Below, one piece after another: positions 1,295-42,942 of a stretch of DNA of 55,743 nucleotides; position 1 is the first letter of the stretch, and each line of letters begins with the position of its first letter. The notes beneath the pieces were generated by a model. It was not told where the DNA came from. It saw only the letters and a list, made by a program, of their open reading frames with translations, and searched no databases. The translations under genes were made by a program, and so were the position numbers. Source of the stretch: Deltaproteobacteria bacterium (GTDB lineage Bacteria; Desulfobacterota; DSM-4660; Desulfatiglandales; HGW-15); assembly GCA_016930795.1 (NCBI GenBank), contig JAFGFY010000069.1:1-55743 (forward strand), in the 5' to 3' direction.

Positions 1295-1774
1295 TTAACC
1301 CTTCCTTTTTGGGAACAGGTCAAAAACAGACGAAGGTGATTCTACGACTTTTTGGATTTTCTCTTGCGTATCCTTATTCTTCTCTTCATTTTTCTTCCCC
1401 CACGCGCCTTCTATTTTGTTTACAAGGTCGTCAATTTCACAAGGCTTGGTCAAATAATCATAGGCCCCCAGCTTGATAGCCTCAAGGGCGGTGTCAATGG
1501 ATCCGTGGCCGGTAAGAATAAGGGTCTGGGCGAAGAGTCCCAGTTTGCCGATCTCTTTCAAGGTCGTGATTCCGTCCATCCCTGGCATCTTCAGATCTAG
1601 GACAATCACATCGAAGTCCTTTTCTCCAAGAATCCGGAGGGCGGCTTCGCCGTTATCCGTGGCCGTTACTAAATACCCTCTAGTAGTCAGAAGTCTCGTC
1701 ATATTTTCGGTAAAGACGGTTTCGTCATCCACCAGCAGAATTCTGGATCCCTTCATCTCTTTGTCCTCCTTCAT
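1295..1774 (-). CDS. Stand-alone response regulator (receiver domain plus short tail)
   Basis: ILLVDDE, VLDLKMPGMDG, LTGHG, YLTKP; no output domain; likely start is the ATG at 1756 behind a GGAGG. Confidence 0.9.
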   Translation of the reverse strand: MKEDKEMKGSRILLVDDETVFTENMTRLLTTRGYLVTATDNGEAALRILGEKDFDVIVLDLKMPGMDGITTLKEIGKLGLFAQTLILTGHGSIDTALEAIKLGAYDYLTKPCEIDDLVNKIEGAWGKKNEEKNKDTQEKIQKVVESPSSVFDLFPKRKG

Positions 1775-1783
1775 TTTCAGTTC

Positions 1784-3562
1784 TTAAGACTTGCCAAGTC
1801 CAACGCTTTCATGGCCTTCCGGCATACTTTCGTTCGGATTCAACGGTGGACGGTAAGGCAGAAAAATGGTGAATTCAGTCCCTTTCCCTTCATGACTCTT
1901 GACAGTAATGTCTCCCCCCAGTTGTTTGATACTGCTGTAGCAGATCGAAAGCCCTAATCCCGTCCCCTTGCCCGCCGGTTTGGTAGTAAAGAATGGATCG
2001 AATACCTTCGCTATGTATTCCGAGGAAATCCCTGATCCTGTATCCGCAATGAGGACCCTTACTCCCTGATTTTGATCGTCGGATTGCGTGCTGATGTGGA
2101 TAATGCCGTAAGGTTTCCCATCATGAGCGTCGATGGCGTTTGTGATCATATTCAGGAATACCTGTTGGAGCTGCGAAGGATCGGAAAGAAGCAAAGGGAG
2201 TCTTTCTTCCAGATCGGAAAGAAATCTAATGCCGCTCGTTTTAGCCTCCCGCTCCACCAGCTCAATAACCTCAATGATAAAGTTATTGAGATCTACGGTT
2301 TCAATAGAAGGTTTGGTGCGTCGAGAGAATCGAAGGAGATTCTGAGTGATCCGCTTGCATCGATGGATTTGGAGATCCATCTGGTTTAGGGAGTGGGTCA
2401 ACTGCCTTCTGAAGCGGTCGTCAAGGTCAGGAGTCTGTTCCGCTGAATCCAGGAGAATCTGTCTTTCGGTCAATACGATGGCCAAGGGATTATTGATCTC
2501 GTGGGCCACACCCGCGGAAAGCTCACCGACAGCGGCCAGTTTTCCTGCCTGCATAAGTTGCCTGTTCAATCGATCTGCTTGGGTGTCCCGCTTCCGAATA
2601 AGCTTAATCATATACCGCGTGATCAGAATCGTCACAATCAGGATGGTGGCCGCGCTCAAATGAAGAAAGACCAAAATGGCAACATTAGCCCGGTTGACCT
2701 CATTGAAGGCCTCCGAGTATTCCTGCATCACCACCAGCATCCATCGAGGTTCATCAAGCCATAAGGTCGCTACGATCTTACCCGGAAAGGGTTGTTGTGT
2801 CTCCTTTGTATCGGATTTTGAGACATATACTCGAATGCCCTCATGGATCGGCCCCGCGGGGAAGGGGGCGTTTTCCATGATTTGTCCCGAAAACCTGGGA
2901 TTCGTCTGAAAGATCCCTTCTTGATTAATCAGATAGACCTCACCTGTTTTGCCGATCCGAACATCTTCCACAAGAGAGCGAAAGGCATCCGTGTCAATGG
3001 TCGCCCTCAAGATCCATGTTTCCTCATTTTCGGCGCGGGTGACGGCAATGACAAAATGAGGGACCTCTCGAAATCCTGAGAACATATCGCTTATGTAGAT
3101 TCCTTTTTCCATCACTTGCCCAAACCAGAGGGCCTCCGAGTAGTTCTTGTCCATGAGGTCATAGGGGCCCACATAGGCCAAATGCTTTCCGTGATCATCG
3201 ATGACCCCTAAATCTGTCAGGGATCCGTATTCCCGATTCATAATTTCAAAAACTCGAAAGAGATTCGCTCTTTGTGTTAAAATATCCCTGGAATGAGTTT
3301 CGGAGATCAAACGAAGTCTGGAACACCTCTCTTGTAGAAAAGACTCTATGATCCTGCGATGGTAGTCCACCAGTGTTTGAAAGGAATCGGTCATTCGGGA
3401 GACGGCAAACCTCTTGTAATGAATGTTTATCGCCCATCCTACCAAGAGAAGGGGCACAAGTGAGCACACAAGGGTCAATCCAATGAACTTAAAATACAAC
3501 CCGGAGTAATGTATTTTCTTCTCTTGTGGATCATCTCTATCAAAATGAGTCGATTTATTCAT
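1784..3562 (-). CDS. Sensor histidine kinase with periplasmic Cache-type domain (NtrB/AtoS-like core)
   Basis: Two TM segments, [18 protein letters not shown] sensor motif, H-box AHEINNPL, N-box, FFTTK, GTGLGL. Confidence 0.92.
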
Positions 3563-3699
3563 CGCCGCAAGGTCTCTTATTTAGGCCTCTATTATCCCGG
3601 ACAATTGTTCAAAACGATATAACCTGTACATAACCTCTTCGTTTCTTAGACAGACACCCGGAAGAAGACGAAGGTCTATGACCAATGGGTCCCTCGGAC

Positions 3700-4389
3700 T
3701 CATTGATTCTCCCAGATTTCACATTCTTCACCTCTATGTTCGACAATATAGAGTAAGGAAAATCTGCTCTTTAGCTCTGATTTCAGTTCCTGCCTTCTAG
3801 ATTCATCAACACCGTAAATACGGATATAGACCTTATGAAAGACCTCAGGAACACGATAAGAAGAGCTTAGAATGCTTTCAATGCGACCGCCAAACATTCG
3901 AATAACGTCGGTGACCTCTTTAATCGAGCCGGGTCGATCTTCCAGCTGAAACGCGAATTGGACTCCATCCTTCCTGGTACCAATAAAAGAAATCAAGGCC
4001 CGAAAAACATCCGTCTGAGAAACAACCCCCTTCAAATTTCCTTCGCGATCCATCACAGGTGCGCTCGATAATTTGTTCTCCATCATAATCTCTGCAGCCT
4101 TTTCGACCGTGTAATAATTCATGATTTTTATGGGATTCCTTATCATAAACTCTTTTACTTTGATGTGAGTAGTCATTCGGTCCATTCCCAGAACATATTC
4201 CAGCCTGCCGATTTCAGAGGCCGACGCTCTCTTTATCTCTCTATCTGTAATGTAGCCGACCAACGATCCCTCTCTCAATACGGGTAATCCCCTTATGTTG
4301 TATGTTCCCATAAGCTTCGCAGCATCTTCCATAGAGCTCTCTACATCGATTGTAATGACCGTATGACTCATCCAATTTTTTACAAGCAT
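3700..4389 (-). CDS. CBS-pair plus ACT domain protein (AcuB-like), copy 2
   Basis: MLVKNWMS N-terminus, CBS pair, C-terminal ACT motif LEDRPGSIKEVTDVIR. Confidence 0.88.
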   Translation of the reverse strand: MLVKNWMSHTVITIDVESSMEDAAKLMGTYNIRGLPVLREGSLVGYITDREIKRASASEIGRLEYVLGMDRMTTHIKVKEFMIRNPIKIMNYYTVEKAAEIMMENKLSSAPVMDREGNLKGVVSQTDVFRALISFIGTRKDGVQFAFQLEDRPGSIKEVTDVIRMFGGRIESILSSSYRVPEVFHKVYIRIYGVDESRRQELKSELKSRFSLLYIVEHRGEECEIWENQ

Positions 4390-4533: not shown

Positions 4534-5223
4534 TCATTGATTATCCCATATTTCATATTCTTCACCTTTCTGTTTAACAACATAGAGTAAAGAAAACTTG
4601 CTTTTTAGCTCTGATTTCAGTTCCTGTCTCCTGGATTCACCAACCCCGTAGATACGGATATAAACCTTACGAAAGCCCTCAGGTACACGATAAGAAGAAC
4701 TTAGAATGCTTTCAATGCGACCGCCAAACATGCGAATAATGTCAGTGACCTCTTTAATCGAACCGGGTCGATCTTCCAGCTGAAACGCGAATTGGATTCC
4801 TTCCTTTTTGGTCCCCATAAAGGAAACCAGGGCCCGAAAAATATCCGTCTGGGAAACAACTCCCTTCAACTTGCCTTCGCGATCCACCACAGGTGCGCTC
4901 GATAATTTGTTCTCCATCATAATCTCTGCTGCCTTCTCGACCGTGTAATCAGTCAAGATCTTAATGGGATTCTCTATCATAAACTCCTTAACTTTGATGT
5001 GAGTGATCATTCGGTACATTTCCGGAATATATTCCAGTCTGCTGATTTCAGAGGCCGACGCCCTCTTTATCTCTTTATCCGTAATGTAACCTGCCAATCT
5101 CCCCTCACTCAACACGGGTAATCCCCTTATATGGTGGATTTCCATAAGTTTCGCAGCGTCTTTAAGATAGGTCTCTAAGTCGACTGAAATGATCGGATGA
5201 CTCATCCAATTTCTTACAAGCAT
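4534..5223 (-). CDS. CBS-pair plus ACT domain protein (AcuB-like), copy 1
   Basis: MLVRNWMS, CBS pair, LEDRPGSIKEVTDIIR; colinear paralogue of 3700-4389. Confidence 0.88.
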   Translation of the reverse strand: MLVRNWMSHPIISVDLETYLKDAAKLMEIHHIRGLPVLSEGRLAGYITDKEIKRASASEISRLEYIPEMYRMITHIKVKEFMIENPIKILTDYTVEKAAEIMMENKLSSAPVVDREGKLKGVVSQTDIFRALVSFMGTKKEGIQFAFQLEDRPGSIKEVTDIIRMFGGRIESILSSSYRVPEGFRKVYIRIYGVGESRRQELKSELKSKFSLLYVVKQKGEEYEIWDNQ

Positions 5224-5250: not shown

Positions 5251-6162
5251 TTACAGCATATTTCGCTGAATTCTCTCCATTTCAAAGAACAGATCCTGTT
5301 CCCGAATGACGCCTATGGCTTTGCCTGATTTGACGACAAGCAGGCGTCTGACGTTCTGTGTGAACATCATGTGGGCGGCTTCCATGAGATTCGATTCCCC
5401 CTCAATGGTGAGGGGGGCTTGGGACATGATATCTTGGACTCTTGCCCTGATCAGACCTTGAATCGCGCTCGTGAACATGCCCTTCCAAAACATGGGAGAA
5501 TACTGAATACTATCTGCCATGGATGGTTTGACGGCGTTGAGATATCCCGGCATGATCGCTTTAAGTAGGTCCGTGATTGATAGAATGCCCTGAACTTCAC
5601 CCTTCCCATCCAGTACAAGAAGGGAACGGTGTCCGGTTTCCATGATCCGGTTTGTGGCCATCTTCAAGAGGAATGACATCTTCAACTTGATCATGGCTTC
5701 CTTGACTGTCTGGTCGCGATAAATCGTCGTATATTCCTGGAGTGGGATCATCACTTCCTTGGCCATCATCTCGTGAGGAGAACGTCCTCCATCTATCCTA
5801 TATTCAAATGCCTCATGGATTTTGCCGGCGAGAATCGTAATATCGCATGGCTTTGTGAGATAATCGAAAGCCCCTTCGACCAGGGATTCTCTGGCCGACG
5901 GCAGAGCTCCGTGACCTGTAAGCATGATTATCGGGAGATATGGTGAACGTTTCTTGATCTCCCTCAAGACCTGGTGGCCGTCCATGCCTGGCATTTTAAT
6001 ATCCAGAATCACCACATCTGGATTTTCCTTGAGTTTTTCAAGGGCCTCTTCACCGTTTTCAGCCAAAATAGTCTCAAAGCCTCTCCGGCCAAGAAGCTTT
6101 TTAGTCGTAGCTCGAAAACGTTCCTCGTCATCAACCATAAGCACTTTTATTCTTTCATTCAT
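5251..6162 (-). CDS. Response regulator with receiver domain fused to a CBS pair
   Basis: VLMVDDE, ILDIKMPGMDG, LTGHG, LTKP, followed by CBS repeats (AKEVMIPL...; RVQDIMS...RRLLVV). Confidence 0.88.
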   Translation of the reverse strand: MNERIKVLMVDDEERFRATTKKLLGRRGFETILAENGEEALEKLKENPDVVILDIKMPGMDGHQVLREIKKRSPYLPIIMLTGHGALPSARESLVEGAFDYLTKPCDITILAGKIHEAFEYRIDGGRSPHEMMAKEVMIPLQEYTTIYRDQTVKEAMIKLKMSFLLKMATNRIMETGHRSLLVLDGKGEVQGILSITDLLKAIMPGYLNAVKPSMADSIQYSPMFWKGMFTSAIQGLIRARVQDIMSQAPLTIEGESNLMEAAHMMFTQNVRRLLVVKSGKAIGVIREQDLFFEMERIQRNML

Positions 6163-6197: not shown

Positions 6198-6749
6198 TCA
6201 TCCCTGTCTGCCCGCAAAAAGAGCGAATTGAATCAATAAGAACAGGCAACCGGCCGTGATCAAGATGATTCGAAAGGCCATAGAGGCTGTAATGGGGCCT
6301 ACTTTGGCCATTCCAAGACCTATCAGGCCGTATGTCCAGATCCCTGTGACCCAGGAAATGCCGGGAATCCAGGCAAGCAAGAGTGTGGCGTTGGCATAAG
6401 CCGTAATGCTAAGCACGGTCTGATACGAAAATACATGTCTGCATAGAATCAGGGTCGCGAGATAAGCAAGGAAGGCCGTGATAAATGGCATGAAAAACGC
6501 GTTCATGAAATAGAGGGCTCCGAGGACTGCCTTCTCTCTGTTCGTACACATAGTCGCGCAGATGCTATGAAGCGTACTGCATAAAAAAAGAAAGATGATC
6601 GGATATGTGTATCCGCTCCGTTGGAGAAGTCTTTCATAGAAAGTTCTCGGATGAAACAGTATGGCACAGACGATTCTGAAAATCCGATCAAAGGGCGCCC
6701 ATCCTTGGAAACCTTGTTTATCATTGATGGTGATTGATTTGTCCGTCAT
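6198..6749 (-). CDS. Small integral membrane protein, Yip1-domain-like
   Basis: ILFHPRTFYERL N-terminal motif typical of bacterial Yip1 proteins, about 5 hydrophobic segments. Confidence 0.65.
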   Translation of the reverse strand: MTDKSITINDKQGFQGWAPFDRIFRIVCAILFHPRTFYERLLQRSGYTYPIIFLFLCSTLHSICATMCTNREKAVLGALYFMNAFFMPFITAFLAYLATLILCRHVFSYQTVLSITAYANATLLLAWIPGISWVTGIWTYGLIGLGMAKVGPITASMAFRIILITAGCLFLLIQFALFAGRQG

Positions 6750-6807: not shown

Positions 6808-8655
6808 TCAAAACGAAATCAACCCGGGATATCCCAACCACCTCCAGTAGATGCTCACCAACAACATGAGTCCCGCCATATTCGTGAACCAGAGAATAAG
6901 TCCCACTCTCAAGTAATCCTTAGGCTCTAGGTATCCACTGGCATAGACAATGGCATTAGGCGGCGTCCCGATAACAAGGCAATAGGCAAAGGACGACGCA
7001 ATGGCCGTCCCCATGGCCATAAAGGGGATCATTGCACTCCCCGGATGGACTATCCCTCCCATGGCCAAGGTGACCGGTCCCACCGCCGCGCAAGCAGGCC
7101 CGTCCGCCATAAGTTGTGTAAGCAAACCTGTTATGGCGTTGCCTGTCAGCATGAGGCCAAGACCATGTCCCAATCCCAACGGAATCGTCAAATGCAGCAA
7201 AGACCGTGCGATCCAATAAGCACCACCTGTCTCTACAAGGACACGACCGAATATAATGGCCCCTGCATAGAGCCATACCACCCCCCAGTCCACTTTGGTT
7301 TGGTAGTCACGCCAGTTAACGATTCCGGCAAAAATGTACGCGACGGCACCCATAACGGCAAGCACGCCGATCCCGAACCGGATGCCCGTCCATTTGAGAA
7401 GGAGATTGTTTTCCGTAATCCAGCAAAAAAGCATGATGAGGAAGATCGTAATCGCCACCTTCTGCTGACGAGTCCATCTAGCCCCCACTCTCATAGACTC
7501 TTGTTTCGCTAAATCCAAGGCTTCACCAAGGTTCCTTATAGAGGGTCTGAATCGCCAATTGATCACTATCCATGTGACGGGCATCAAAAAGACCAGAAAG
7601 GGCACACAATATACGCACCACTGTCCAAAACCCATGCTGATGCCGAACATATCCTCAGTATAGTTCATCATGATAATATTGCGCGCGGCACCGGAAGGGG
7701 CCAGAGAACCACCGAGATTGCAGGCCATGGCGATGGTGATCATCAGCATCTTGGCCAACTCGGGGTCTTCTCTGCCCGCAGCACTCATTGAAGCCGTGTA
7801 AAGAAGAATGCCGATGGGAAGAAACATGGCGGCCAACGCGTGATCAGACATGAACATGGTCAACGGCGCGATAACGCATATAATGATGAGACTCACCCAT
7901 TTAATATCCGGGCTTTTCAATCTGCCGAACATCATCATGGCGATCCGTCTATCCACACCGGTTTTGACAAAGGCCGTGGCAAACATGAGGCTCCCCATGA
8001 TAAACCACGTGGCATCGGACCAGTAGAGTCCCGCTACCGTCTCCCTCGTCACAATTCCGCTCATCAAGGCAATAATGCCTATGCTAAACGCCACCATAGG
8101 CAACGGCATGGCCTCGCTCACAAAACAGAGGACCACAAAAAAGACAATTCCTACCGCCATCTTGACATGGAAGCCGGCCCTCATGGCTTCCTTCTTCTCA
8201 TTTTCGCTTAGATTCTCAAACGAGAGTTCCTCGGTCCTTAATCGATAGCCCCTATCCATAACGGACCTAAATTCTTCAGGCGTCATTTGTTCTGCAAAGG
8301 CCCTAATCTTTTCAAGGTGTTCCTTCGCGGTCGGAATGCTATTCGTTTCACACCATCTTTCATTTCTCTTGACAAAGGAAGCACGGGAAAACGATGACTT
8401 CTGAATGCTCTTCTCCATCATTCTGATCATTTGGATCTGCCATTGGGACAGCTCCGTTGTTTTGGTATTGAAAAGCTCTTCGGAAAAGAAATCCTGAACA
8501 TGTCGGGGTCCAAGGGCATATTCGATGCCTACATCAAGCATGCTTTTTGGTAGGGGAAGAAATAGAAGCAGGACGAGCACTCCCACTGGAATGGAAAAGA
8601 GACGCCAGTCGATGTACCTGTCATACCCTGATGTCTTTTTCTTTGCCTCAACCAT
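6808..8655 (-). CDS. SLC13/DASS family anion:sodium symporter with a large hydrophilic insertion after TM1
   Basis: SEAMPLP, FMSDHALAA, ACNLGGSLAPSGAARN, VIGTPPNAIVYASGYL; AGGAGG RBS. Confidence 0.88.
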   Translation of the reverse strand: MVEAKKKTSGYDRYIDWRLFSIPVGVLVLLLFLPLPKSMLDVGIEYALGPRHVQDFFSEELFNTKTTELSQWQIQMIRMMEKSIQKSSFSRASFVKRNERWCETNSIPTAKEHLEKIRAFAEQMTPEEFRSVMDRGYRLRTEELSFENLSENEKKEAMRAGFHVKMAVGIVFFVVLCFVSEAMPLPMVAFSIGIIALMSGIVTRETVAGLYWSDATWFIMGSLMFATAFVKTGVDRRIAMMMFGRLKSPDIKWVSLIIICVIAPLTMFMSDHALAAMFLPIGILLYTASMSAAGREDPELAKMLMITIAMACNLGGSLAPSGAARNIIMMNYTEDMFGISMGFGQWCVYCVPFLVFLMPVTWIVINWRFRPSIRNLGEALDLAKQESMRVGARWTRQQKVAITIFLIMLFCWITENNLLLKWTGIRFGIGVLAVMGAVAYIFAGIVNWRDYQTKVDWGVVWLYAGAIIFGRVLVETGGAYWIARSLLHLTIPLGLGHGLGLMLTGNAITGLLTQLMADGPACAAVGPVTLAMGGIVHPGSAMIPFMAMGTAIASSFAYCLVIGTPPNAIVYASGYLEPKDYLRVGLILWFTNMAGLMLLVSIYWRWLGYPGLISF

Positions 8656-8906: not shown

Positions 8907-9356
8907 TTATTCGGTTTCCCTTAGAATCTCTCTTGGCGTTTTCATAGAGAGGCGGGTCTGAGCCACGCGAATCTTTTCCTCTAATCGCTTCCTCCTCTCA
9001 AAGGCCTCTTCTGCCTTTTCAAGGAGTTCATCGATATCGGCAGGCTTCATCAGATAATCCGTAGCGCCGGACTTAAGTCCCTCCACGGCGGACTCCACTG
9101 TCGCGTGTCCGGTCAACATAATGACCTCCGTCAAAGGATGTTGCCTCTTGATCTCCCGAAGTGTGGCCATGCCATCCATCCCCGGCATCTTGACATCCAG
9201 TATGACCACGTGAATGCTGTGGGAGTTGAGCATTTCCAAGGCCTCTCCCCCACTCAAGGCCGTCAGCAAATCTATTCCTTTTTTTGAAAGCAATTTCTTG
9301 GTGGTGGAAAGAAACCTCTCCTCATCGTCCACTAACATGATCCTCATTTCTTCCAT
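8907..9356 (-). CDS. Stand-alone response regulator (receiver plus coiled-coil tail)
   Basis: MLVDDEE, ILDVKMPGMDG, LTGHA, YLMKP. Confidence 0.9.
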   Translation of the reverse strand: MEEMRIMLVDDEERFLSTTKKLLSKKGIDLLTALSGGEALEMLNSHSIHVVILDVKMPGMDGMATLREIKRQHPLTEVIMLTGHATVESAVEGLKSGATDYLMKPADIDELLEKAEEAFERRKRLEEKIRVAQTRLSMKTPREILRETE

Positions 9357-11113: not shown

Positions 11114-11140
11114 AGGCCCAGCCCACACCAGACAATCCAG

Positions 11141-14975: not shown

Positions 14976-15021
14976 CCTCTCCTCCTCCAAACAGACTCTG
15001 GCGTCTGTTTACGCAATGATC

Positions 15022-26406: not shown

Positions 26407-26430
26407 GAAAAATCCTTTTTGGTGATAATG

Positions 26431-33132: not shown

Positions 33133-33822
33133 TCAGTGTTCCAACTGCATTCCCCACCCCTCGAACATATACATGTAGGCAAACCCGTACCAGAGGGTGT
33201 ATATCACGTAAAAAACCAACGAAAAGATCACAATCCAGATTTTATCCATAATCCTTTGAGGCTCAATCCCAAAGTAGTTGTAGGAGCACTCAACCGCCTT
33301 ATCTTTTACTTCCGTGACGATTTTGGCCTCTTTAAATTTTTTCTGCTTCTTGAGATCCTTGTCCATCTCCCTGAAGGTCAACCACCAGTGGTATAGGGCC
33401 AGTCTCGCGTCATATCCGTATTTCTTTGAAATTTGATCACCGTCGTTTCGATACATGGCCTCGGCATCCTCCAGACAATTCTCCAGAATTTTTCCCAAAT
33501 CACCCGATACTCTGAGGATGTTACCCGACAGAGAGGTCTCTGCGCCTCCTTTTTCAAATAGGCGTGCGCAGTGCTCTGTAGTTTGATGATCCTGCATGAT
33601 GAGCGTCAAGCTGACCATATCACCAAGATAGCCTTTGGTTTCTTCCGTCACCTTGGGGATGTAATAGGCAGAAGCCTTGGATATGGAGTTATAGAGATGA
33701 TCCATGTAATTCAGTCCGTTCTTCCCTTCAAAAACAGGCAGAAAAAAGATGATCAGTAGGACAACAAATCCGATCATCATGGCAAAGCCTCTGAAAAATA
33801 TTCCTTTTCGGGAAATCATCAT
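33133..33822 (-). CDS. Hypothetical membrane protein (two TMs flanking a soluble domain), coupled to the TauE gene
   Basis: Hydrophobic N- and C-terminal segments, overlaps the TauE stop codon, GGAGAGG RBS. Confidence 0.75.
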   Translation of the reverse strand: MMISRKGIFFRGFAMMIGFVVLLIIFFLPVFEGKNGLNYMDHLYNSISKASAYYIPKVTEETKGYLGDMVSLTLIMQDHQTTEHCARLFEKGGAETSLSGNILRVSGDLGKILENCLEDAEAMYRNDGDQISKKYGYDARLALYHWWLTFREMDKDLKKQKKFKEAKIVTEVKDKAVECSYNYFGIEPQRIMDKIWIVIFSLVFYVIYTLWYGFAYMYMFEGWGMQLEH

Positions 33823-35175: not shown

Positions 35176-35604
35176 TCATTCTCTGCCTGAGGTCATCCGC
35201 TTTATGTTATCTATCTTTTGTTCCTGTATGATCTTCTGTTGATGGGCGTCCTGAATCTTGTACAGGAGATCATCGATCTGCATGGGTTTCATAAGGTAAT
35301 CAAACGCCCCGAACTCCATTCCTTGAACGGCGACTTCCACGCTGGCATGCCCGGTAAGCATAATGACCTCGATGAGAGGGTGCCTCTTCTTTAACGCCCT
35401 CAAGGTCTCAATACCGTCCATTCCCGGCATTCGAACATCTAGGATCACTACATCTATTGGGCTCTGATCCAATGTCTGAAGCGCTTCTTCACCACCTCGT
35501 ACGCCGGTGATATCCACATTTCGCTTTTTCATTCGCTTGATTAAGGTTTCTGAAAATTCTCTTTCGTCATCGACGAGCAAAACCTTTATGTTATGCATTC
35601 TCAT
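35176..35604 (-). CDS. Stand-alone response regulator
   Basis: VLLVDDE, ILDVRMPGMDG, LTGHA, LMKP; start after GGAGGAGG at ATG 35604 or 35598. Confidence 0.9.
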   Translation of the reverse strand: MRMHNIKVLLVDDEREFSETLIKRMKKRNVDITGVRGGEEALQTLDQSPIDVVILDVRMPGMDGIETLRALKKRHPLIEVIMLTGHASVEVAVQGMEFGAFDYLMKPMQIDDLLYKIQDAHQQKIIQEQKIDNIKRMTSGRE

Positions 35605-35703
35605 CACCTCCTCCAAAGGAAACGCTTGCCCCTTCTTTATCAGGCGTGCTTCACGTTTGTAGTTCCTGTCTTCACGGTCACAAACAAACACTTTTGCGCA
35701 TTT

Positions 35704-36102
35704 TCAATCCGGCCATTTTTCGTCAAGCCTTCTCTTTTTTTCCGTGGCTTCTTGCATCCGGGAAATGAGCTGATCAATGTCACAGGGTTTAACCAGGTAA
35801 TCGAAAGCCCCCAATCTCATTCCTCTAATGGCGGAGTCCACGGTAGAATGGCCGGTGAGAATGATAACTTCCACCAACGGATAGTCTCTTTTAATCTCCT
35901 CGAGGGTTCTAAGGCCATTCATACCAGGCATTTTGATATCAAGCACAATGATCTCAATATCGGGATCTTTTTTAAGCTGGGCCAGTGCCTCTTGTCCGCT
36001 AAAGGCCGTTATGATATTGAGTTCTCTTCTCGATAGACGCTTGGTCAATGTCTTTACGAAGGGTATCTCATCGTCGACCAAGAGTATTTTCACGGGATAC
36101 AT
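35704..36102 (-). CDS. Stand-alone response regulator
   Basis: ILLVDDE, VLDIKMPGMNG, LTGHS, LVKP. Confidence 0.9.
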   Translation of the reverse strand: MYPVKILLVDDEIPFVKTLTKRLSRRELNIITAFSGQEALAQLKKDPDIEIIVLDIKMPGMNGLRTLEEIKRDYPLVEVIILTGHSTVDSAIRGMRLGAFDYLVKPCDIDQLISRMQEATEKKRRLDEKWPD

Positions 36103-36130: not shown

Positions 36131-37891
36131 CTATTGTTGAGAATTCAAAATTCTTGACGCTTCTTCGACATTGTTTTTCCCACTCCCCTTGAGTGGGAGC
36201 CTTATACAGAACGTACTCCCTTTATCGATGACGCTGCGGACACTGATCTCCCCTCCCAATTTTTTAATAATCCCATAGCAGATTGACAGGCCTAAACCGG
36301 TTCCCTTCCCGACCGGCTTGGTCGTAAAAAAGGGATCAAAGATTTGTGAAATGTTATCTTCCGGAATCCCGACACCATCGTCTGAAACCTCAATCACGAC
36401 ATGATCTTCTTCCAGTCGGGCGGATATGGATAAAATCCCCCCTTTCTTTTCCATTGCATCCAAGGCGTTATTAATCAGGTTGAGAAGGACTTGTTGAAGC
36501 TCGGTTGGAGAGACCTCAATGGGAGGAAGATCCTTTTTTATTTCCATATTGATGATAATGCCGCTGAACCTTGCCCTTTTTGCGGAAATGGTGACCATAT
36601 CTTCAATCAATTCATTCAACCTGATCGTCTCTATTCTGGAGTCTGTTTTCCTGGCAAAACTGAGCAGTTTGTGGGTTATCTCCTTGCAGCGTTCCCCTTG
36701 AGTGCGAATCTGCCTCAATGCTCTTCTAAATTCACCCAAATTTTTGCTTTCCTGGAATTCTTCCTCTTCCAACAGATCGTCAATCCAGCCGGCTTCTTCA
36801 ACCATAATAGCGACCGGATTGTTGATTTCATGGGCGATACCTGCCGCCAGTTCACCTATCGACGCCAGTTTGCCCGTCTGAAACATCTGTTCGCTTCGTT
36901 TTTGCTTTTCTTTGTCAGCCTGCTGGATTCTACGAAGCATCTTCTTGGAGAGGCTGAGGGTATTGGCCACGATCAACAAACCGACTATCAAGATGACAGT
37001 GAGGGCTATCATCTCTGTCTTTATAAGACCGGAAAACGCCTCAGAGGCCCTTTGATAATAGACCAGGGCCCAATCCCCTCCTTTGAGAAAGCCTGTTACG
37101 TATATGTTTTTATGCCCTGAACCATCCGTCCGCTGAACCATGAAGATGTCTCGCGCCCCTTCTGTGATTCCCAGGAAATCCATTAAGCTTCTTTCTCCGT
37201 GGTCTATGTGGTGAATCGATCCGACCTGATATTGCCCATCCCTATCTATGATAAAAGCGGATCCCCCCCTTCCGGTAACAGTCTCTTTCACGACTCGGCT
37301 GAACACATCGCGATCGATGCCTGTTCGCAAAACCCAGTCTTTTTCCATTTTGTTTTTTCTCACTGCAATGATGATAAAGGGAATGTCTGCCAAGCCGGAA
37401 GGCATATGGCTAATCACATACCCGGTACTCATCGCTTCTCGGTACCAGTCAGTCTTTAAATGTCTTGGATTCTCAGATTTATGAGGGCCTGCATAGGCGA
37501 CCCGAACACCCTCATCGTCAATCACCTCCAGATCTGAAAAGACATGGCCGTAATGCTTCTGTAATCTGTTCAACATCTCCACTAAAAAGAATTCATCCGT
37601 TAATTGTTGGAAATTAAATGTGTCCGCCATCATGCTGATGTCGGCCAGTTTATCTTCCAAGAAACGATCAATATGCTCTGTGCTTTTTTGAATAACTTCT
37701 TCGAGATGCGCCCTAATCTCCTTTTTATAGGACACTCGAGACTGATATAAAATGATGCCGCTGACCAGCACCATGGGTATAAGGGGAACCACCACTCCGA
37801 TAAGAAACATACTTTTCATTAATGATTTATAATGCTTATCAGCTGCCATGCCTCTTTTGAGTCCTTCGAAAAAGGGATTCGACGTCTTCAA
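36131..37891 (-). CDS. Sensor histidine kinase with divergent Cache-type domain
   Basis: H-box [30 protein letters not shown]; sensor motif altered to [18 protein letters not shown]. Confidence 0.9.
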
Positions 37892-37922: not shown

Positions 37923-38765
37923 TTATTTGTCATCTTCATTCTCTTCCATAAACTCTTTCATGGTTTCCCTAGCCATTTCCCTCTCGCCTGCCTGCGCAAA
38001 GGCTGAAGCCATAATGAGAGTATCCATAGCCCTCTTTGATTTCTTAATTTTCTTCCATGCATTTTGTAAGGCGCCGACCAGGCGATCAATGTCCACGGGT
38101 TTTCTCATGTAGGCGACTGCCCCTAATTTCTTGGCCATGGCCTCATCTTTGTCCGTTCCATGACCTGTCAGCACAACCACCTGGACATCAGGATTCCTCT
38201 CCTTGGCCTGACGCAGCACCTCTATCCCATCAATGCCGGGCATTCTGAGGTCCAGCACCATCATGTCATGTTTTCCCTCCTTGAGCGCTTCCAGGGCCTG
38301 CTCACCGTCATAGGCGACATCGGCTTCAAGGTTTCGCAGTTCAAGTCGCTCCGAAAGGCTCTCGACAAATTCCTTCTCATCATCCACTAGAAGCACTTTC
38401 ATCTTCTCTTTCTTCATGGCGCCAATAAGATGATCAATATCTACCGGTTTCTTTAGATAGGCGAATGCGCCAAGTTTTTTGGCCATGGCTTCGTCCTTCT
38501 CGGTTCCGTGACCTGTCAGCACAACCACCTGGACATCGGGATTCCTCTCTTTGGCCTGACGCAGCACCTCTATCCCATCAATGCCGGGCATTCTGAGGTC
38601 CAGCACCATCACGTCGTGTTTTCCTTCCTTGAGCGCTTCCAGGGCCTGCTCACCGTCATAGGCGACATCGGCTTCAAGGTTTCGCAGTCCAAGTCGCTCC
38701 GAAAGGCTCTCGACAAATTCCTTTTCGTCATCCACTAAAAGGATTTTCAGTTTTTCTTTCTTCAT
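37923..38765 (-). CDS. Response regulator with two near-identical tandem receiver domains
   Basis: LLVDDEKEFVESLSERL...VLDLRMPGIDG...LTGHGT...KPVDID occurs twice; DNA period 348 bp. Confidence 0.92.
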   Translation of the reverse strand: MKKEKLKILLVDDEKEFVESLSERLGLRNLEADVAYDGEQALEALKEGKHDVMVLDLRMPGIDGIEVLRQAKERNPDVQVVVLTGHGTEKDEAMAKKLGAFAYLKKPVDIDHLIGAMKKEKMKVLLVDDEKEFVESLSERLELRNLEADVAYDGEQALEALKEGKHDMMVLDLRMPGIDGIEVLRQAKERNPDVQVVVLTGHGTDKDEAMAKKLGAVAYMRKPVDIDRLVGALQNAWKKIKKSKRAMDTLIMASAFAQAGEREMARETMKEFMEENEDDK

Positions 38766-38853: not shown

Positions 38854-38870
38854 AGCAAAGGATATGCCAA
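38854..38870 (-). promoter_or_regulatory. sigma54 -24/-12 promoter
   Basis: Minus strand reads TTGGCAT-ATCCT-TTGCT; IHF-like TTTCAGGTGGTTA at 38888-38900. Confidence 0.82.
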
Positions 38871-39037: not shown

Positions 39038-39421
39038 TTAACGGCTTCTTAGTTTTGAGGGCTCGAGGGCCTCGTTCATTCGATTGATCAACTCCTCGAT
39101 ATTGACGGGCTTCATCAGATAGTCAAAGGCCCCTTGATACATGCCCTTGATCCCGTCTTTTGTGGAGCCGTGACCCGTTAAAAGGATGACCTGAATTTCA
39201 GGATGCTTTCTCTTTATTCGCTTCAAGACATCAAGTCCGCCGATGCCGGGCATCAAAACATCCAACACCACTAGAGGCGGTTTGTGCTCTTCTATTAGAT
39301 GAAGAGCCTGTTCACCATTCATGGCTACAAGGGTTTCGATATCTCTAAATTCAAGTCTCTCTGCTAAGGTGGACACAAATTCCTGTTCATCATCCACCAA
39401 GAGCACCTTTATTTTGTTCAT
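39038..39421 (-). CDS. Stand-alone response regulator
   Basis: VLLVDDE, VLDVLMPG, LTGHG, LMKP. Confidence 0.9.
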   Translation of the reverse strand: MNKIKVLLVDDEQEFVSTLAERLEFRDIETLVAMNGEQALHLIEEHKPPLVVLDVLMPGIGGLDVLKRIKRKHPEIQVILLTGHGSTKDGIKGMYQGAFDYLMKPVNIEELINRMNEALEPSKLRSR

Positions 39422-39422
39422 G

Positions 39423-41156
39423 CTATGCCTCCGCCTCCTGTTTAGCGCTCTTGGGAAGAAACACAGTAAATGTGGTTCCTTTCCCTTCCCTGCTATTGAC
39501 CTCGATATGACCGCCCAGCTTCTTGATAATACCGTAAGTAATGGAAAGGCCTAGACCCGTACCGTACCCCTTGCGTCCCGTGAAAAAAGGGTCAAAAATA
39601 CGACTCATGGTCTCTTCCGACATTCCGATGCCGTTGTCCTCTATGGATACTGATACAAGTTCTGGGTCTTGCCGGCGGCTGGTAATGGCAATGCTTCCAC
39701 CATCTTCCACGGCAGAAAAGGCGTTGTTGAGGATGTTGAGAAAGACCTGCTGCAACTGGCCGTGGTCTGAGGAGATCTCCGGAAGTTCTTTATCCAAATT
39801 GAGCCGCACCTCGATGTTGCGATGAAACGCCTCCTTTTCCAGAAAGCCGTACACTTCCTGCACGACTTCGTTCAGGTCTATGGTCTCGATTTCAACATCC
39901 ATGCGACGGGCAAAGCCCAGGAGTCGATGGGTAATCGTGCTACACCGATCCACACAGGCGTTGATCGACTCCGTCAACTTCAGAAATTTCTCTTTTCTTT
40001 CAAAGGTTGGCATGGTCTCGATGAGGTCTTGCAGAAGGCCGGCCTTCTCATTGATAATCGCCATCGGATTATTGATCTCATGGGCGACCCCGGCCGCCAG
40101 TCGACCGACCGATGCCAGTTTGTTCGTGTGCTCGATTTCATGATAGGTCACGAGACGTTCACGGTCAGATATTTCGATCCGTTTAACGAGTATGTCCGTT
40201 ATCTTAAATACAACAAGAAAAATGAGAAGCACGCTGACTATAAAAATGATCAGTATTTCACTTTTCAGTGTGTACCAGGACTTTAAAACCTCACTTCGCG
40301 GTTTTGCCAGCATAAGGACGAACGAAGGGGAGAGAAAGTATTTATAGGCCAGCAGGATTGGATGTCCCTGGGGATCCATCGTTTCCACGACATCCGTCTC
40401 ATAGTTTATGGGAGGCATAGGCATGGGAAACCTCTCCAAAACCTTTCCATAGAACCTTGATGAGGTCTGAAAAACGCCTGAATGGTTCACAATAAAGGCG
40501 TCACTTGATGAATCAAGTCCCATGGAGGCAATGAGACTATTAAACTTCTCCGTGTCGATGGTAGCCCGGAGAATCCAGTTTTCCCCTATTTGGTTTTCCG
40601 TCCGAATGGCGATCACAAAATGGGGAAACTTGCGATATCCCATAAATACCTCGCTGATATGCTCTCCACGAACCGTTACTTCCCTGAACCAGTCATGGTC
40701 CATGTATGTCTTCCCTTCAAGAGAATAGGGACCGACATAGCTCTTTTGCACACCGAAAGAGTCTATTAATCCAAGATCTACAAAACCTCCGAATTTATCT
40801 TTCATGACATGAAAGATACGATTCAGGGTCTTCTGGTCGGATAATTCCTCAAAAGAATAGGCCGAAGCGATGAAACTAACGGCCGAAAGGCGCTCCGTGA
40901 GAAAAAGCTCAAAGGAGTGTTGGGTTTTACTGACCAGGCTCCTCATGGGCGTGATGATCTCACGCCTTAGCGCCTGCTGATACTCATAGTGATTAATGAC
41001 AGCCATCATGACAAGGGGCAATATGGTAACCGCCACCATGATAAGAATCATATTGCGCCTAAGAAGTCTGTAACGCCGAGGAAATTCTTCCTCGCTGGGG
41101 AATCTCACCGGCTCTGCCAAAATAGAAGTGGCTTGATCTGAGTTTCTGTCAGCCAT
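39423..41156 (-). CDS. Sensor histidine kinase with Cache-type domain
   Basis: HISEVFMGYRKFPHFVIA, H-box AHEINNPM, DNGIGM, GTGLGL; start placed at ATG 41156. Confidence 0.92.
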   Translation of the reverse strand: MADRNSDQATSILAEPVRFPSEEEFPRRYRLLRRNMILIMVAVTILPLVMMAVINHYEYQQALRREIITPMRSLVSKTQHSFELFLTERLSAVSFIASAYSFEELSDQKTLNRIFHVMKDKFGGFVDLGLIDSFGVQKSYVGPYSLEGKTYMDHDWFREVTVRGEHISEVFMGYRKFPHFVIAIRTENQIGENWILRATIDTEKFNSLIASMGLDSSSDAFIVNHSGVFQTSSRFYGKVLERFPMPMPPINYETDVVETMDPQGHPILLAYKYFLSPSFVLMLAKPRSEVLKSWYTLKSEILIIFIVSVLLIFLVVFKITDILVKRIEISDRERLVTYHEIEHTNKLASVGRLAAGVAHEINNPMAIINEKAGLLQDLIETMPTFERKEKFLKLTESINACVDRCSTITHRLLGFARRMDVEIETIDLNEVVQEVYGFLEKEAFHRNIEVRLNLDKELPEISSDHGQLQQVFLNILNNAFSAVEDGGSIAITSRRQDPELVSVSIEDNGIGMSEETMSRIFDPFFTGRKGYGTGLGLSITYGIIKKLGGHIEVNSREGKGTTFTVFLPKSAKQEAEA

Positions 41157-41508
41157 GGGATTTCCTTTCCGGCCGATCAAAGAGGATGGACCCGGCCTTA
41201 AGCTTTCCTTGTGCAAAAAGGTTGAGAGCGTGCTCCCAAGACCCCATTACGGAATCCAATACCCTCACCTTCTTCCAGGTAAGATATTCGAAAAATTCTT
41301 CTTCAATTCCGTTACAGATGACCACTTCAATCCCTTCCTTTGAAATCAATTGACACAGATCCTCCGCAGAGGCATGGGCCAGCACGATCGTCCTGTTCTT
41401 CTCAATGCGTCCATCCGCGCCGATAGAGGAAATCATGACTTCGGTGGTCATGTCGAATCGGGGCGCCACAGCATTTTCACATAGGGTAGTCATAACTTTT
41501 TGTGACAT
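41149..41508 (-). CDS. NifB/NifX (dinitrogenase FeMo-cofactor biosynthesis domain)-like small protein
   Basis: VAPRFD and EVVICNGI motifs, 119 aa. Confidence 0.72.
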   Translation of the reverse strand: MSQKVMTTLCENAVAPRFDMTTEVMISSIGADGRIEKNRTIVLAHASAEDLCQLISKEGIEVVICNGIEEEFFEYLTWKKVRVLDSVMGSWEHALNLFAQGKLKAGSILFDRPERKSHG

Positions 41509-41532
41509 TTTTATCGTCTCCCGCCTAAGACA

Positions 41533-42942
41533 CTATGATTGAATCCCATACTGCTTCATTTTTCGCCATAATGTAGACCTGCCCCAGCCTATAAGTTCGG
41601 CGGCTCTACTGCGCCGACCCCTGGCTTTGAGCAAAGCATCAATGATGAGCTGCCGCTCTACAGATGCCCAACTCATGGTGCTCTTCTCCAGAGATGAATT
41701 CGGTCTCGCCGGGGTCGACAAACGGCCTTTCAAACCATTCTTGGTACCGATCATTTCCGTCCCATGATAAAGATAAGTGGGAAGATCCTCCATTCCGATC
41801 ATGTGAGATGAACAGATGCTGGTTGCATACTCCACGATGTTTCTAAGCTCTCGCACATTACCCGGGTAGGCATAATTCAGCACAACATGGCGGGCCTGCC
41901 GTGAGAAATCCTTGACCTTTTTCCCAAAGCGTGTGGAGAAAAGTTTTATAAAGTGATCCAGGAGAAGGTTGATGTCCTCTTCTCTTTCCCTGAGGGGAGG
42001 TAAATGTAGACGAACAACGTTAAGCCTAAAGAGCAGATCCCGGCGAAAAAGCCCCTCTTCAACCATACGTTCCAAATCTCGATTTGTGGCGGCAATGACC
42101 CGAGCATCGGACTGGAAACCATTGGTGCATCCCAATGGATATACGATCTTGTCGTCCAGAAAGGTCAGGAGCTTGGCTTGGAGCGGAAGCGGAAGGTCAC
42201 CGATTTCCGTGAGAAAGAGCGTGCCGTTATGGGCCAACCGCAGGCGTCCCATCTTGTCATTCACGGCCCCTGTAAAAGCCCCTTTCTTATGCCCGAATAG
42301 CTCTGATTCCAATAGAGTCTCCGGTAAGGCCCCACAATTAATCTTGACAAAAGCCCCTTCTGAACGCTCAGAGGCATTATGGACGATTTCCGCGAGCACA
42401 TCTTTGCCCGTGCCTGTCTCCCCGGTAATAAGGAGAGAAGAATCGGTCTGGGCGATTACCGGGACCAACCGGAGTATATCCCTTATTCTCGGGCTTCGAC
42501 CAATAAATTGACTGAAGCTGTCATCAGATTGAGCCTTATCATCACCTCCCTGATGCGCCCTAATGTCTTCCATCGTCTCCAAAAAACCAACAATCCTTCC
42601 TTTGATATCATGCAAGGGCGCGGTCCTCACTCGAACCGGGATTTTTTGACGCCCGCGATTGATGAGGTTTCCTTCAGCGGTCACCGATGAATGGCTCTCC
42701 GTCACTTTGGGTAAAGGGCAATGATAACTGCAAAGGCTGGTTCGCAATACATCTCGGCAGGGGATCCCCCATACCTCATCCCGCGAAAAGCCGCTTAGGG
42801 TTTCCAGGGCACTGTTCATAAATAGGATTCGTCGTTCAAGGTCTGTAATAGCCAACCCCAGGAAGACCTCATCCATGAGGCTGGAGAGTTCCACGGAGGA
42901 GCCGAATAGTTCTCTGATTTTCCCGAATGATCCAGAAGTCAA
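41533..42942 (-). CDS. PAS-domain sigma54 enhancer-binding protein with C-X8-C-X3-C motif (OrpR-like)
   Basis: PAS with CRDVLRTSLCSYHC, GETGTGKD, GAFTGA, YPGNVREL, HTH GWGRSTLWRKMK; Walker B reads LFLTE. Confidence 0.88.
   Translation of the reverse strand: MTSGSFGKIRELFGSSVELSSLMDEVFLGLAITDLERRILFMNSALETLSGFSRDEVWGIPCRDVLRTSLCSYHCPLPKVTESHSSVTAEGNLINRGRQKIPVRVRTAPLHDIKGRIVGFLETMEDIRAHQGGDDKAQSDDSFSQFIGRSPRIRDILRLVPVIAQTDSSLLITGETGTGKDVLAEIVHNASERSEGAFVKINCGALPETLLESELFGHKKGAFTGAVNDKMGRLRLAHNGTLFLTEIGDLPLPLQAKLLTFLDDKIVYPLGCTNGFQSDARVIAATNRDLERMVEEGLFRRDLLFRLNVVRLHLPPLREREEDINLLLDHFIKLFSTRFGKKVKDFSRQARHVVLNYAYPGNVRELRNIVEYATSICSSHMIGMEDLPTYLYHGTEMIGTKNGLKGRLSTPARPNSSLEKSTMSWASVERQLIIDALLKARGRRSRAAELIGWGRSTLWRKMKQYGIQS

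Follow-up and report, generated by a model that had tools for sequence, protein, structure and literature searches.

A DASS-type anion uptake cluster of sulfate-reducing bacteria with receiver-only regulators and candidate sigma-54 promoters

Background

Dissimilatory sulfate reduction begins with the uptake of sulfate, and the regulation of this step determines how the bacteria cope with falling sulfate in sediments. A 30.5-kb 'DASS-type sulfate transporter' cluster was described in Desulfosarcina variabilis 3be13, with related clusters in 26 species (PMC11887813). Here we analyse a further member of this published cluster type. The window, that is, the whole stretch of DNA considered, comprises 55,743 nucleotides (contig JAFGFY010000069.1 of assembly GCA_016930795.1, positions 1 to 55,743) of an uncultured deltaproteobacterium. 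An initial annotation, made from the letters alone, had recognised in it an island of Cache kinases, receivers without output domains and anion transporters. It interpreted the island as a multi-input phosphorelay with post-translational outputs and knew of no mechanistic description. The latter statement does not stand, as PMC11887813 describes the cluster in D. variabilis and proposes a model.

The published cluster holds abundant DASS transporters, Cache kinases and CBS proteins. In that paper 28 Cache kinases have common sensory residues, and sulfate is the proposed effector. The regulators are named 'WalR type', and in the PhoRB-like model they act on promoters, with the CBS proteins possibly touching the transporters. 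The DASS orthologs of D. variabilis are abundant and constitutive and were assigned to sulfate, and such bacteria are credited with a major share of carbon oxidation in marine sediments (PMC11887813). In Desulfobacterium autotrophicum the DASS genes HRM2_38230 and HRM2_38300 are expressed at low sulfate (PMC5840216, citing Tarpgaard 2017). The same source reports two Desulfobacula DASS proteins that are 27% identical and six locus tags apart, and a high-affinity system that is off at high sulfate.

OmpR/PhoB/WalR-type systems have a winged-helix regulator, whereas the window receivers lack Trans_reg_C. As in NtrC-family sigma-54 systems, the window has a REC-AAA+(GAFTGA)-HTH_8 activator and -24/-12 promoters, and sigma-54 is present in the genome. 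The DctB-DctD-dctA system of rhizobia consists of a periplasmic double-PDC/Cache kinase, an NtrC-family activator and a divalent-anion carrier gene with a sigma-54 promoter and an upstream site. The window is analogous in the kinase type, activator family, promoter type and divalent-anion carrier target. However, here the dCache kinases are paired with receiver-only proteins, the activator is paired with a CHASE3/4HB kinase, and the carriers are of the DASS and TSUP families, not DctA. GlnK, a PII protein regulated by uridylylation and ligands, has been demonstrated to bind AmtB. The resemblance of the window to GlnK-AmtB is a small signalling protein in one operon with a would-be regulated transporter, and here it is known from operon linkage. 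Finally, the RedCDEF 'four-component' system of Myxococcus xanthus (PMC2755868) combines kinases with a dual and a single receiver that have no output domain, and can be compared with the REC-REC-HK_D-REC-REC gene group of the window. Its own features are a kinase-like second protein, developmental control and no linked transporter.

Conservation of the cluster

The source genome is a 4.2-Mb assembly of 285 contigs, 94% complete. All Pfam-supported genes from 299 to 46856 are on the minus strand (Table 1), confirming that the island is co-directional. Both the window and the D. variabilis 3be13 cluster (PMC11887813) contain orthologous DASS genes, several Cache kinases, receivers, a REC-CBS protein and CBS proteins in a conserved order, but the window copy is split by an insertion of about 14 kb. 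Its CBS proteins are two CBS-ACT and one REC-CBS. The cluster is real, conserved and biologically important, and the island very probably is an uncultured Desulfobacterales copy of the DASS-type (probable sulfate) uptake-and-regulation cluster of Desulfosarcina and other Desulfobacteraceae.

The island consists of three transporter-sensor modules and two further kinase-receiver pairs, HK_A-REC_A and HK_E-REC_E. Module M1 is (pseudo-receiver)-DASS1-HK_C-REC_C; module M2, HK_B-REC_B-DASS2-unk183-REC-CBS; and module M3, REC-REC-HK_D-REC-REC-TauE-unk229-PEP-synthase-like, with a pseudo-receiver in relatives at the place of REC-REC.

Related stretches were collected by scanning one genome per species, and the best 80 of 116 were kept for locus counts. 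They come mostly from assemblies of Desulfobacterales and Desulfatiglandales and include D. variabilis Montpellier, D. alkanivorans PL12 and Eth-SRB2. Open reading frames (ORFs) in the fetched regions were found with our own ORF caller and labelled by the best BLASTP match to window proteins (E<=1e-8).

The initial annotation had expected similar gene mixes elsewhere in Desulfobacterota, and synteny is indeed conserved: the three modules recur, in shuffled order, in the related stretches of Desulfobacterales, cultured Desulfosarcina included. DASS1 orthologs with at least 73% identity were found in 9 of 40 relatives' genomes, from three families of the order; any DASS1 match at E<=1e-30 was found in 24 of 41 genomes, the window's own counted. 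Within Desulfobacterales, including Desulfosarcina, DASS1 orthologs are 70-87% identical. In the D. variabilis Montpellier locus (L081) the identities are 72% for DASS1, 54% for DASS2, 54% for HK_C and 72% for REC_C. REC_C lies at most 3 kb downstream of DASS1 in 62 of the 64 loci with enough sequence. The kinase-receiver pairs are kept as well: HK_C is followed by REC_C in 69 of 75 cases, HK_B by REC_B in 34 of 43 (8 of the others being at edges or without a neighbour), and HK_D by REC_D1 or REC_D2 in 16 of 17. DASS2 is flanked by REC_B (27/28), REC-CBS (25/28) and unk183 (21/28), and TauE by REC_D2 (17/19), unk229 (17/19) and the PEP-synthase-like gene (16/19).

The modules are contiguous in several genomes (loci L022 and L026-L029), in the order pREC-HK_D-REC-REC-TauE-unk229-PEP-synthase-like, followed by DASS1-HK_C-REC_C-HK_B-REC_B-REC-CBS-DASS2-unk183. 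This order is ancestral-looking.

Gene spacing (short gaps or overlaps) in the window suggests the operons pREC-DASS1-HK_C-REC_C-HK_B-REC_B, DASS2-unk183-REC-CBS-CBS-ACT, HK_A-REC_A, REC-REC-HK_D-REC-REC-TauE-unk229-PEP-synthase-like-Cytidylate_kin2, HK_F-activator (27961 and 26553), porin-Acs, and (OrpR-like activator)-Nitro_FeMo-Co-HK_E-REC_E.

Kinases and receivers

The five dCache kinases HK_A to HK_E have a common layout: a transmembrane (TM) segment, dCache_1, a second TM segment, HisKA and HATPase_c. Their pairwise identity is 33-38% at full length (at least 546 residues, sensor domain included), in agreement with the single architecture claimed initially. The dCache_1 scores of HK_D (36131) and HK_E (39423), 43.3 and 32.7 bits, are below the Pfam cut-off of 45, with E-values of at most 7e-8 for both. 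The motif ISD/E.F/Y.G.R..PHF.IA is present in four of the five kinases, as originally observed, and HK_D has a diverged version. The transmitter domains are closest to ZraS and AtoS. A sequence search of PDB retrieved no solved relative of the sensor domain. Five of the six full-length family members that the genome encodes are in the window; the sixth (G000 contig C48:2131-4580), outside it, likewise has two flanking receiver-only genes, of 126 and 117 aa.

None of the window kinases is a hybrid, as no receiver domain was found in any of them. Hpt domains (PF01627) were not found in the window, and the whole genome contains one, on contig C127, Spo0B-like proteins being outside this search. 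With no Hpt in the window and no hybrid kinases, the phosphorelay of the initial annotation lacks support in its classical His-Asp-His-Asp form.

The kinase-adjacent receivers are short. Six of them, REC_A, REC_B, REC_C, REC_D1, REC_D2 and REC_E (127-171 aa, mutual identity 37-52%), contain Response_reg only, and neither winged-helix Trans_reg_C nor any other DNA-binding domain is present in any of the six. Response_reg is also the sole domain of the regulators adjacent to Cache kinases in D. variabilis Montpellier, D. alkanivorans and Eth-SRB2, so that the initial observation of receivers without a DNA-binding domain extends to cultured Desulfosarcina. The assignments of 37923 as REC-REC and of 5251 as REC-CBS hold too, whereas 15022 proved to be a weak, degenerate receiver with neither the second acidic residue nor the conserved Lys. 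The receiver part of REC-CBS is 54.5% identical to REC_B.

This domain content contradicts a PhoRB/WalR-type reading. In the published model, given in the text and the Fig. 5D legend of PMC11887813, phosphorylated 'WalR type' regulators bind transporter promoters directly, whereas the window has receiver-only regulators, as do the two Desulfosarcina and Eth-SRB2, and the promoters described below are of the sigma-54 type, which requires an AAA+ activator (PMC4641369). We consider direct promoter binding by these regulators very improbable indeed. No earlier description of the receiver-only or sigma-54 features was found in the literature searched, which did not cover the supplements of PMC11887813, possibly with domain maps.

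Could the receivers be phosphate sinks or decoys, the dCache kinases signalling to DNA-binding regulators whose genes lie elsewhere? Chemotaxis systems offer examples of sink receivers. Other partners exist in the genome, which has 72 receiver-like regions (22 receiver-only ORFs, 6 of them in the window) and 25 sigma-54 AAA+ domains. On the other hand, the kinase-receiver pairs are co-inherited across genera at the frequencies given above, and in the window the paired genes overlap or are separated by 9-71 bp. Conservation of REC_B and REC_C extends over the whole length, the C-terminal tail (...KIR.A...) included, and receivers elsewhere in the genome are at most 44% identical to those of the window. 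A role as sinks is therefore improbable.

NtrC1 is controlled by a dimer-repression mechanism. Unlike REC_C, it has AAA+ and HTH domains. Nevertheless, the receiver and coiled-coil linker of Aquifex NtrC1 and of DctD (PDB 1zy2, 1ny5) are the best solved relatives of REC_C: the best match of the REC_C family profile, the NtrC1 receiver 1zy2, covers profile positions 4-137 of 153 and continues past helix 5 into the linker. The best NCBIfam matches of the receivers are the receiver parts of AtoC and ZraR. Their closest longer relatives are REC-REC proteins, REC-kinase fusions, REC-CBS proteins (recurring as P0023, P0037 and P0044) and sigma-54 activators.

Sigma-54 promoters and candidate activators

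Three perfect TGGCAC-N5-TTGC boxes and one with a single mismatch were found in the window, all intergenic and on the gene strand. Only such zero- and one-mismatch intergenic boxes were given weight, because the 27 matches with at most two mismatches in the window are fewer than the shuffled mean of 39.3. Each perfect box is preceded, at about 106 bp, by the palindrome TTTACA-N3-TGTAAA (TTTCCA-N3-TGTAAA in the copy upstream of the universal stress protein (USP) gene). In the 4.2-Mb genome there are two strict palindromes and three relaxed composites of palindrome and box, all within the window. The initial claim that the outputs of the island are post-translational does not hold as the whole story, given these four promoters and the upstream palindrome that the three perfect ones share; it is conserved between genera and is located beside the CHASE3-kinase and NtrC-type activator genes of the cluster itself.

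The composite element is found 60 times in the related loci, 58 times on the gene strand, and in 59 of the 60 copies palindrome and box are 104-109 bp apart. The ORF that comes next is DASS1 in 33 cases, HK_B in 10, REC_B in 3, pREC in 2, CBS-ACT in 2, and HK_C, REC_D2 and an NtrC-like gene in one each; it has no label in 6 cases, and in one there is none. In the consensus of 66 distinct copies, cCTTTACA-N3-TGTAAAAAAT.CTGACA is followed by an A/T-rich tract, which lies about 35-50 bp ahead of the box, and then by TTGGCACA-N4-TTGC. There is a single composite in the 9.6-Mb genome of D. variabilis, upstream of DASS1, and there are three in D. alkanivorans; a reversed-pattern control gave none in both.

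The genome contains rpoN (Sigma54_DBD on contig C114). As stated in the initial annotation, the only transcription factors within 1295-42942 are the activators 26553 and 41533 and Rex (19625). The palindrome binder most likely is the 26553 activator, to judge from genomic context; GAFTGA is present in its alignment. Of 40 relatives, 15 have an ortholog of it (68-77% identity), among them 7 of the 9 with DASS1 orthologs. The D. variabilis ortholog (70% identity) and the DASS locus are separated by about 6 kb, and in G001, from the same genus, a partial copy (87%) lies at a contig end. In 10 fetched loci the kinase-activator pair stands among DASS, kinase and receiver genes. The composite adjoins the kinase-activator operon in six of these, directly after the activator in five and before pREC-kinase-activator in one; three of the four loci without it are at or near a contig end.

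The region 38870-39037 (minus strand) upstream of REC-REC-HK_D contains TGTCTCATAA twice and ATGTTTCATA, and not the TTTACA palindrome. These different upstream repeats suggest a second activator for this promoter.

The other activator, 41533, is similar to OrpR of Desulfovibrio vulgaris in its PAS-AAA+-HTH organisation, the Fe-S-binding pattern C-X8-C-X3-C and the acidic residue at +2; the OrpR motif is C52/C61/C65 with D/E54, and OrpR's own palindrome is GGGCGYRTTTTGCGCCC (PMC8359166). Another common feature is the Nitro_FeMo-Co gene that 41533 precedes; the difference is that here this gene is followed by HK_E-REC_E. The linkage Nitro_FeMo-Co-HK_E-REC_E was also observed in locus L117; we take the Nitro_FeMo-Co domain to be the domain of orange protein.

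Two tiers of control

We propose that the cluster is controlled at two levels. At the transcriptional level, the CHASE3 kinase HK_F (27961) would phosphorylate the NtrC-type activator 26553, and the latter, bound at TTTACA-N3-TGTAAA, would drive the sigma-54 promoters of the modules about 106 bp downstream. This tier is probable, the promoters and the palindrome being seen directly and the binder assigned from its context. At the second level, each periplasmic dCache kinase would phosphorylate its own receiver-only regulator, which, having no DNA-binding domain, would act by protein contact, the likeliest targets being the co-encoded transporter or the CBS-domain proteins. Such a tier would provide fast, module-specific control beyond the reach of a shared promoter type. 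Since the modules share one upstream site, we infer that module-specific control is exerted at another level. That the target at this level is a transporter or a CBS protein is a tentative suggestion, with rather less than an even chance of being right. Taken as a whole, cluster identity and two-tier control are our best explanation, although slightly short of probable.

Control of the transporters at the protein level is favoured by the one-to-one kinase-receiver-transporter linkage, the REC-CBS fusion, the free CBS-ACT proteins and the retained N-terminal extensions of the DASS proteins. Direct gating by receivers or CBS proteins is plausible. In its fullest form, phosphorylated receivers and REC-CBS would bind the DASS and TSUP transporters directly or via CBS-ACT and switch uptake within seconds, with the kinases sensing sulfate or a related oxyanion; in all these details the proposal is doubtful. 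The post-translational idea comes from the initial annotation and, for the CBS proteins, partly from PMC11887813 too. The initial interpretation is partly supported, by the conserved synteny, the output-less receivers, the pairs kept in each lineage and REC-CBS beside DASS2; its phosphorelay, purely post-translational output and novelty are not supported.

Several observations weigh against two-tier control as outlined. Strict adjacency (kinase, then receiver, each within 300 bp) holds in 53 of 73 cases, the misses being mostly gaps above 300 bp, split ORFs or the effect of our own filter. None of the 75 longer relatives of the receivers is a receiver-transporter fusion. Of the 72 regions upstream of DASS1 that could be examined, only 43 have a sigma-54 box and 38 the palindrome; many of the remaining DASS1 genes appear to be internal operon genes, usually close behind REC-CBS or REC_B. 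In the window there is no box upstream of DASS2, HK_A, the CBS-ACT genes or HK_F. The binder of the palindrome is not proven, as one genome (G030, 98% complete) has DASS1 and the composite, and its best match to the activator is only 45% identical. The similarity of the receivers to those of NtrC1-type activators, linker included, fits action on an activator as well as on a transporter. In loci L113, L116 and L120 (genomes G035, G010 and G008) a receiver-only gene, 57-60% identical to REC_D1, immediately precedes the CHASE3 kinase-activator gene pair. This place is taken by a third DASS paralog (37-38% identical to DASS1) in L111 and L112, so that in relatives the activator arm is itself a transporter-kinase-regulator module.

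These latter observations lead to another possibility: the output may be transcriptional only, the receivers acting on sigma-54 activators by pairing with their receiver-linker or by competing for kinase phosphate, and several periplasmic signals converging on the shared promoters. Because the receivers resemble that of NtrC1 and, in relatives, receiver-only genes precede the CHASE3 kinase gene, it is nearly as likely as control of transporters. The AtoC and ZraR matches of the receivers point the same way, as does the similarity of the transmitters to ZraS and AtoS, the partners of such activators. A split activator exists in Desulfovibrio vulgaris, where DVUA0025 is the receiver of DVUA0024 (PMC4641369); in the window the activator 41533 has no receiver and precedes HK_E-REC_E. 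Moreover, DASS transcript levels respond to sulfate (PMC5840216). However, the strict one-to-one linkage of kinase, receiver and transporter lineages would then have no obvious use, 26553 is already equipped with a receiver and a kinase of its own, and the OrpR-type cysteine motif (PMC8359166) of 41533 suggests redox rather than receiver control. On balance we regard an exclusively transcriptional output as somewhat unlikely and retain the two-tier scheme.

Compared with the text of PMC11887813, our analysis adds the receiver-only regulators, the sigma-54 promoters, whose upstream site is both sharply defined and very rare, and the CHASE3-kinase/NtrC-type pair as the likely transcriptional arm, thereby revising the published working model. 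Phosphorylation-dependent gating of transporters by the conserved dCache kinase-receiver pairs becomes directly testable in cultured Desulfosarcina or Desulfobacterium. If true, two-component phosphorylation would be a post-translational gate on secondary transporters, atop a sigma-54 transcriptional tier.

Transporters and their substrate

The two DASS proteins are 27% identical to each other, and the core of DASS2 matches both VcINDY and SLC13A1 in a PDB sequence search. The N-terminus of DASS2 has about 165 extra residues, comprising one TM segment and a 130-aa hydrophilic domain. The extensions of DASS1 and DASS2 are 40-41% identical among orthologs, compared to 64-80% for the cores (41% and 64% in DASS2). 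They have no match in solved DASS structures and nothing credible in Pfam at E<=1. A predicted complex of DASS2 with REC-CBS scored 0.01 (mark 0.32), which counts neither for nor against binding.

The assignment to sulfate relies on published transcript and proteome data and not on transport assays, which also weighs against the scheme above. The transporters might carry di- or tricarboxylates or other anions, making the island a DctB/DctD-like carbon-uptake regulon. The DASS family includes dicarboxylate and citrate carriers, and in the DctB/DctD paradigm a dicarboxylate carrier is under the control of a double-PDC kinase and a sigma-54 activator. In the window the porin-acetyl-CoA synthetase operon, behind which lies the L-lactate-type MFS gene, also has this palindrome and promoter type upstream. 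However, the D. autotrophicum DASS genes, whose membership in the cluster is inferred from locus tags, respond to sulfate (PMC5840216), and the orthologs of D. variabilis were assigned to sulfate (PMC11887813). In addition, a TauE/TSUP transporter and an APS kinase are co-located, and the carbon genes belong to an insertion absent from most related clusters. A carboxylate regulon is thus rather unlikely, and sulfate remains the probable substrate.

Table 1. Genes and candidate regulatory sites of the window
Feature	Position	Strand	Basis
FNT, formate/nitrite transporter; last gene of co-directional block	299..1174	-	Pfam Form_Nir_trans 263 bits
REC_A, receiver-only with C-terminal tail	1295..1774	-	Response_reg only; 9 bp after HK_A
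HK_A, dCache histidine kinase	1784..3562	-	dCache_1, HisKA, HATPase_c; two TM segments
CBS-ACT protein, copy 2	3700..4389	-	CBS pair and weak ACT; 79% identical to 4534-5223
CBS-ACT protein, copy 1	4534..5223	-	CBS pair and weak ACT
REC-CBS response regulator	5251..6162	-	Response_reg and CBS pair
unk183, small membrane protein, 4 hydrophobic segments	6198..6749	-	no Pfam/NCBIfam match
DASS2, SLC13/DASS anion symporter	6808..8655	-	Na_sulph_symp, TIGR00785
REC_B, receiver-only, cognate to HK_B	8907..9356	-	Response_reg only; after HK_B in 34/43
HK_B, dCache histidine kinase	9428..11128	-	Pfam domains
REC_C, receiver-only, conserved NtrC1-like linker tail	11141..11620	-	Response_reg only; tail conserved
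HK_C, dCache histidine kinase	11622..13289	-	Pfam; REC_C next in 69/75
DASS1, SLC13/DASS anion symporter, 110-aa N-terminal extension	13320..14990	-	Pfam, NCBIfam
pREC, degenerate pseudo-receiver, first gene of DASS1 operon (predicted)	15022..15471	-	Response_reg 34.1 bits
Candidate sigma-54 promoter TGGCACAGCCATTGC, upstream of pREC-DASS1	15502..15516	-	zero mismatches, intergenic
Palindrome TTTACATTCTGTAAA, candidate activator site	15623..15637	-	conserved in relatives
Na/Pi cotransporter with PhoU domain	15703..17376	-	Pfam
Universal stress protein	17497..18009	-	Usp
Candidate sigma-54 promoter TGGCACAGGCCTTGC, upstream of USP	18017..18031	-	zero mismatches
Palindrome variant TTTCCAGTCTGTAAA (TTTCCA-N3-TGTAAA, USP)	18142..18156	-	
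[FeFe]-hydrogenase-like Fe-S protein, 438 aa	18158..19474	-	Fe_hyd_lg_C, FeS, Fer4
Rex-type redox repressor	19625..20398	-	Put_DNA-bind_N and CoA_binding
APS kinase	20454..21122	-	APS_kinase 227 bits
MFS transporter, L-lactate SfMCT type	21204..22505	-	NF049980 402.7 bits (cut-off 320)
Acetyl-CoA synthetase (Acs)	22607..24685	-	ACAS_N, AMP-binding
DcaP-like outer-membrane porin	24682..26025	-	DcaP 27.3 bits
Candidate sigma-54 promoter TGGCACGCAAGTTGC, upstream of porin-Acs	26391..26405	-	zero mismatches
Palindrome TTTACACTCTGTAAA, 27 bp past 26553 activator stop codon	26512..26526	-	
NtrC-type sigma-54 activator (REC-AAA+-HTH_8), candidate palindrome binder	26553..27983	-	Response_reg, Sigma54_activat, HTH_8
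HK_F, CHASE3/4HB histidine kinase; gene overlaps 26553 activator gene	27961..29460	-	Pfam; two TM segments
Cytidylate_kin2-family protein	29620..30450	-	Pfam
PEP-synthase-like protein	30472..33075	-	ATP-grasp and swivelling His domains, then conserved 290-aa C-terminal domain
unk229, TM segment at each end, no known family	33133..33822	-	TM prediction
TauE/TSUP-family transporter	33819..35132	-	TauE 130.7 bits
REC_D2, receiver-only	35176..35691	-	Pfam
REC_D1, receiver-only	35704..36102	-	Pfam
HK_D, dCache histidine kinase, diverged motif	36131..37891	-	Pfam domains, motif check
REC-REC tandem receiver	37923..38765	-	Response_reg twice, 190 bits
Candidate sigma-54-like promoter TGGCATATCCTTTGC, upstream of REC-REC-HK_D	38855..38869	-	one mismatch
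REC_E, receiver-only	39038..39421	-	Pfam
HK_E, dCache histidine kinase; true start probably later than 41216	39423..41216	-	Pfam, motif check
Nitro_FeMo-Co-domain small protein, 119 aa	41149..41508	-	Pfam
PAS-AAA+-HTH_8 sigma-54 activator, OrpR-type cysteines	41533..42942	-	C62, D64, C71, C75 (counted by eye)

The insertion and accessory genes

The genes HK_F, APS kinase, acetyl-CoA synthetase, the DcaP-like porin, the [FeFe]-hydrogenase-like protein and Nitro_FeMo-Co were missed in the initial annotation. Most of them lie in the insertion of about 14 kb (15.7-30.4 kb), a carbon and redox gene block that separates the cluster halves in this genus and contains the CHASE3 kinase-activator pair and the genes porin-Acs-MFS-APS kinase-Rex-hydrogenase-like-USP-Na/Pi. 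G001, on a 14-kb contig, has the same order from DASS2 through pREC, Na/Pi and the hydrogenase-like gene to Rex. The porin-acetyl-CoA synthetase genes, preceded by the palindrome of the DASS modules and a sigma-54 element, are followed by the L-lactate-type MFS, APS kinase and Rex genes (promoter and first two genes at 22607-26526). The sulfate-cluster regulon may, in this genus, have taken in genes for carbon uptake. The MFS gene (21204) had been labelled OFA; it does encode a transporter, scoring above the cut-off for the L-lactate type SfMCT.

The hydrogenase-like protein has a C-terminal PF04060 Fe-S domain and is below every [FeFe]-hydrogenase NCBIfam cut-off; adjoining Rex, it may be sensory or non-catalytic. 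The true start of the USP is probably at a Met cluster about 13-15 codons downstream, because no more than 8 bp separate the ATG at 18009 from the -12 element. The gap that separates the porin gene from its sigma-54 promoter (26026-26390, minus strand) contains an 85-aa ORF starting VLLAVDGSDQSFEAVRYV... that resembles a truncated universal stress protein; a wider read of this gap contains stop codons.

The PEP-synthase-like protein has no PEP/pyruvate TIM barrel and instead contains a 290-aa domain (residues 575-867, window 30472-31350). The latter is very strongly conserved, e.g. TFHDITRFCHEK, PWEGPPPVDGKG and NYFMISKNYC, and has no relative in Pfam, NCBIfam or PDB. Its AlphaFold2 model, built from 20 sequences, is poor (mean pLDDT 54.1). 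Nothing credible was found in Pfam at E<=1 for unk229, unk183 and both ends of the PEP-synthase-like protein, and in Protein Atlas unk229 and residues 575-867 matched only unnamed or 'PEP-utilizing' clusters of Thermodesulfobacteriota. The Cytidylate_kin2 protein does not belong to the core loci, CMK2-like ORFs having been observed only in L103 and L104 (26-38% identity).

No Rfam family matched the window at gathering thresholds, and a search of sequencing runs found no RNA run with this stretch, but one DNA run that contains it and may be its source. The upstream regions of the tandem CBS-ACT genes (3563-3699 and 4390-4533) are duplicated together with the genes. Both an inverted repeat, CTTCGTCTTCTT...AAGAAACGAAG, and a TTGACA/TTGAAC...TATTAG/TAATAG pair, whose spacing is unusually short, are part of the duplication.

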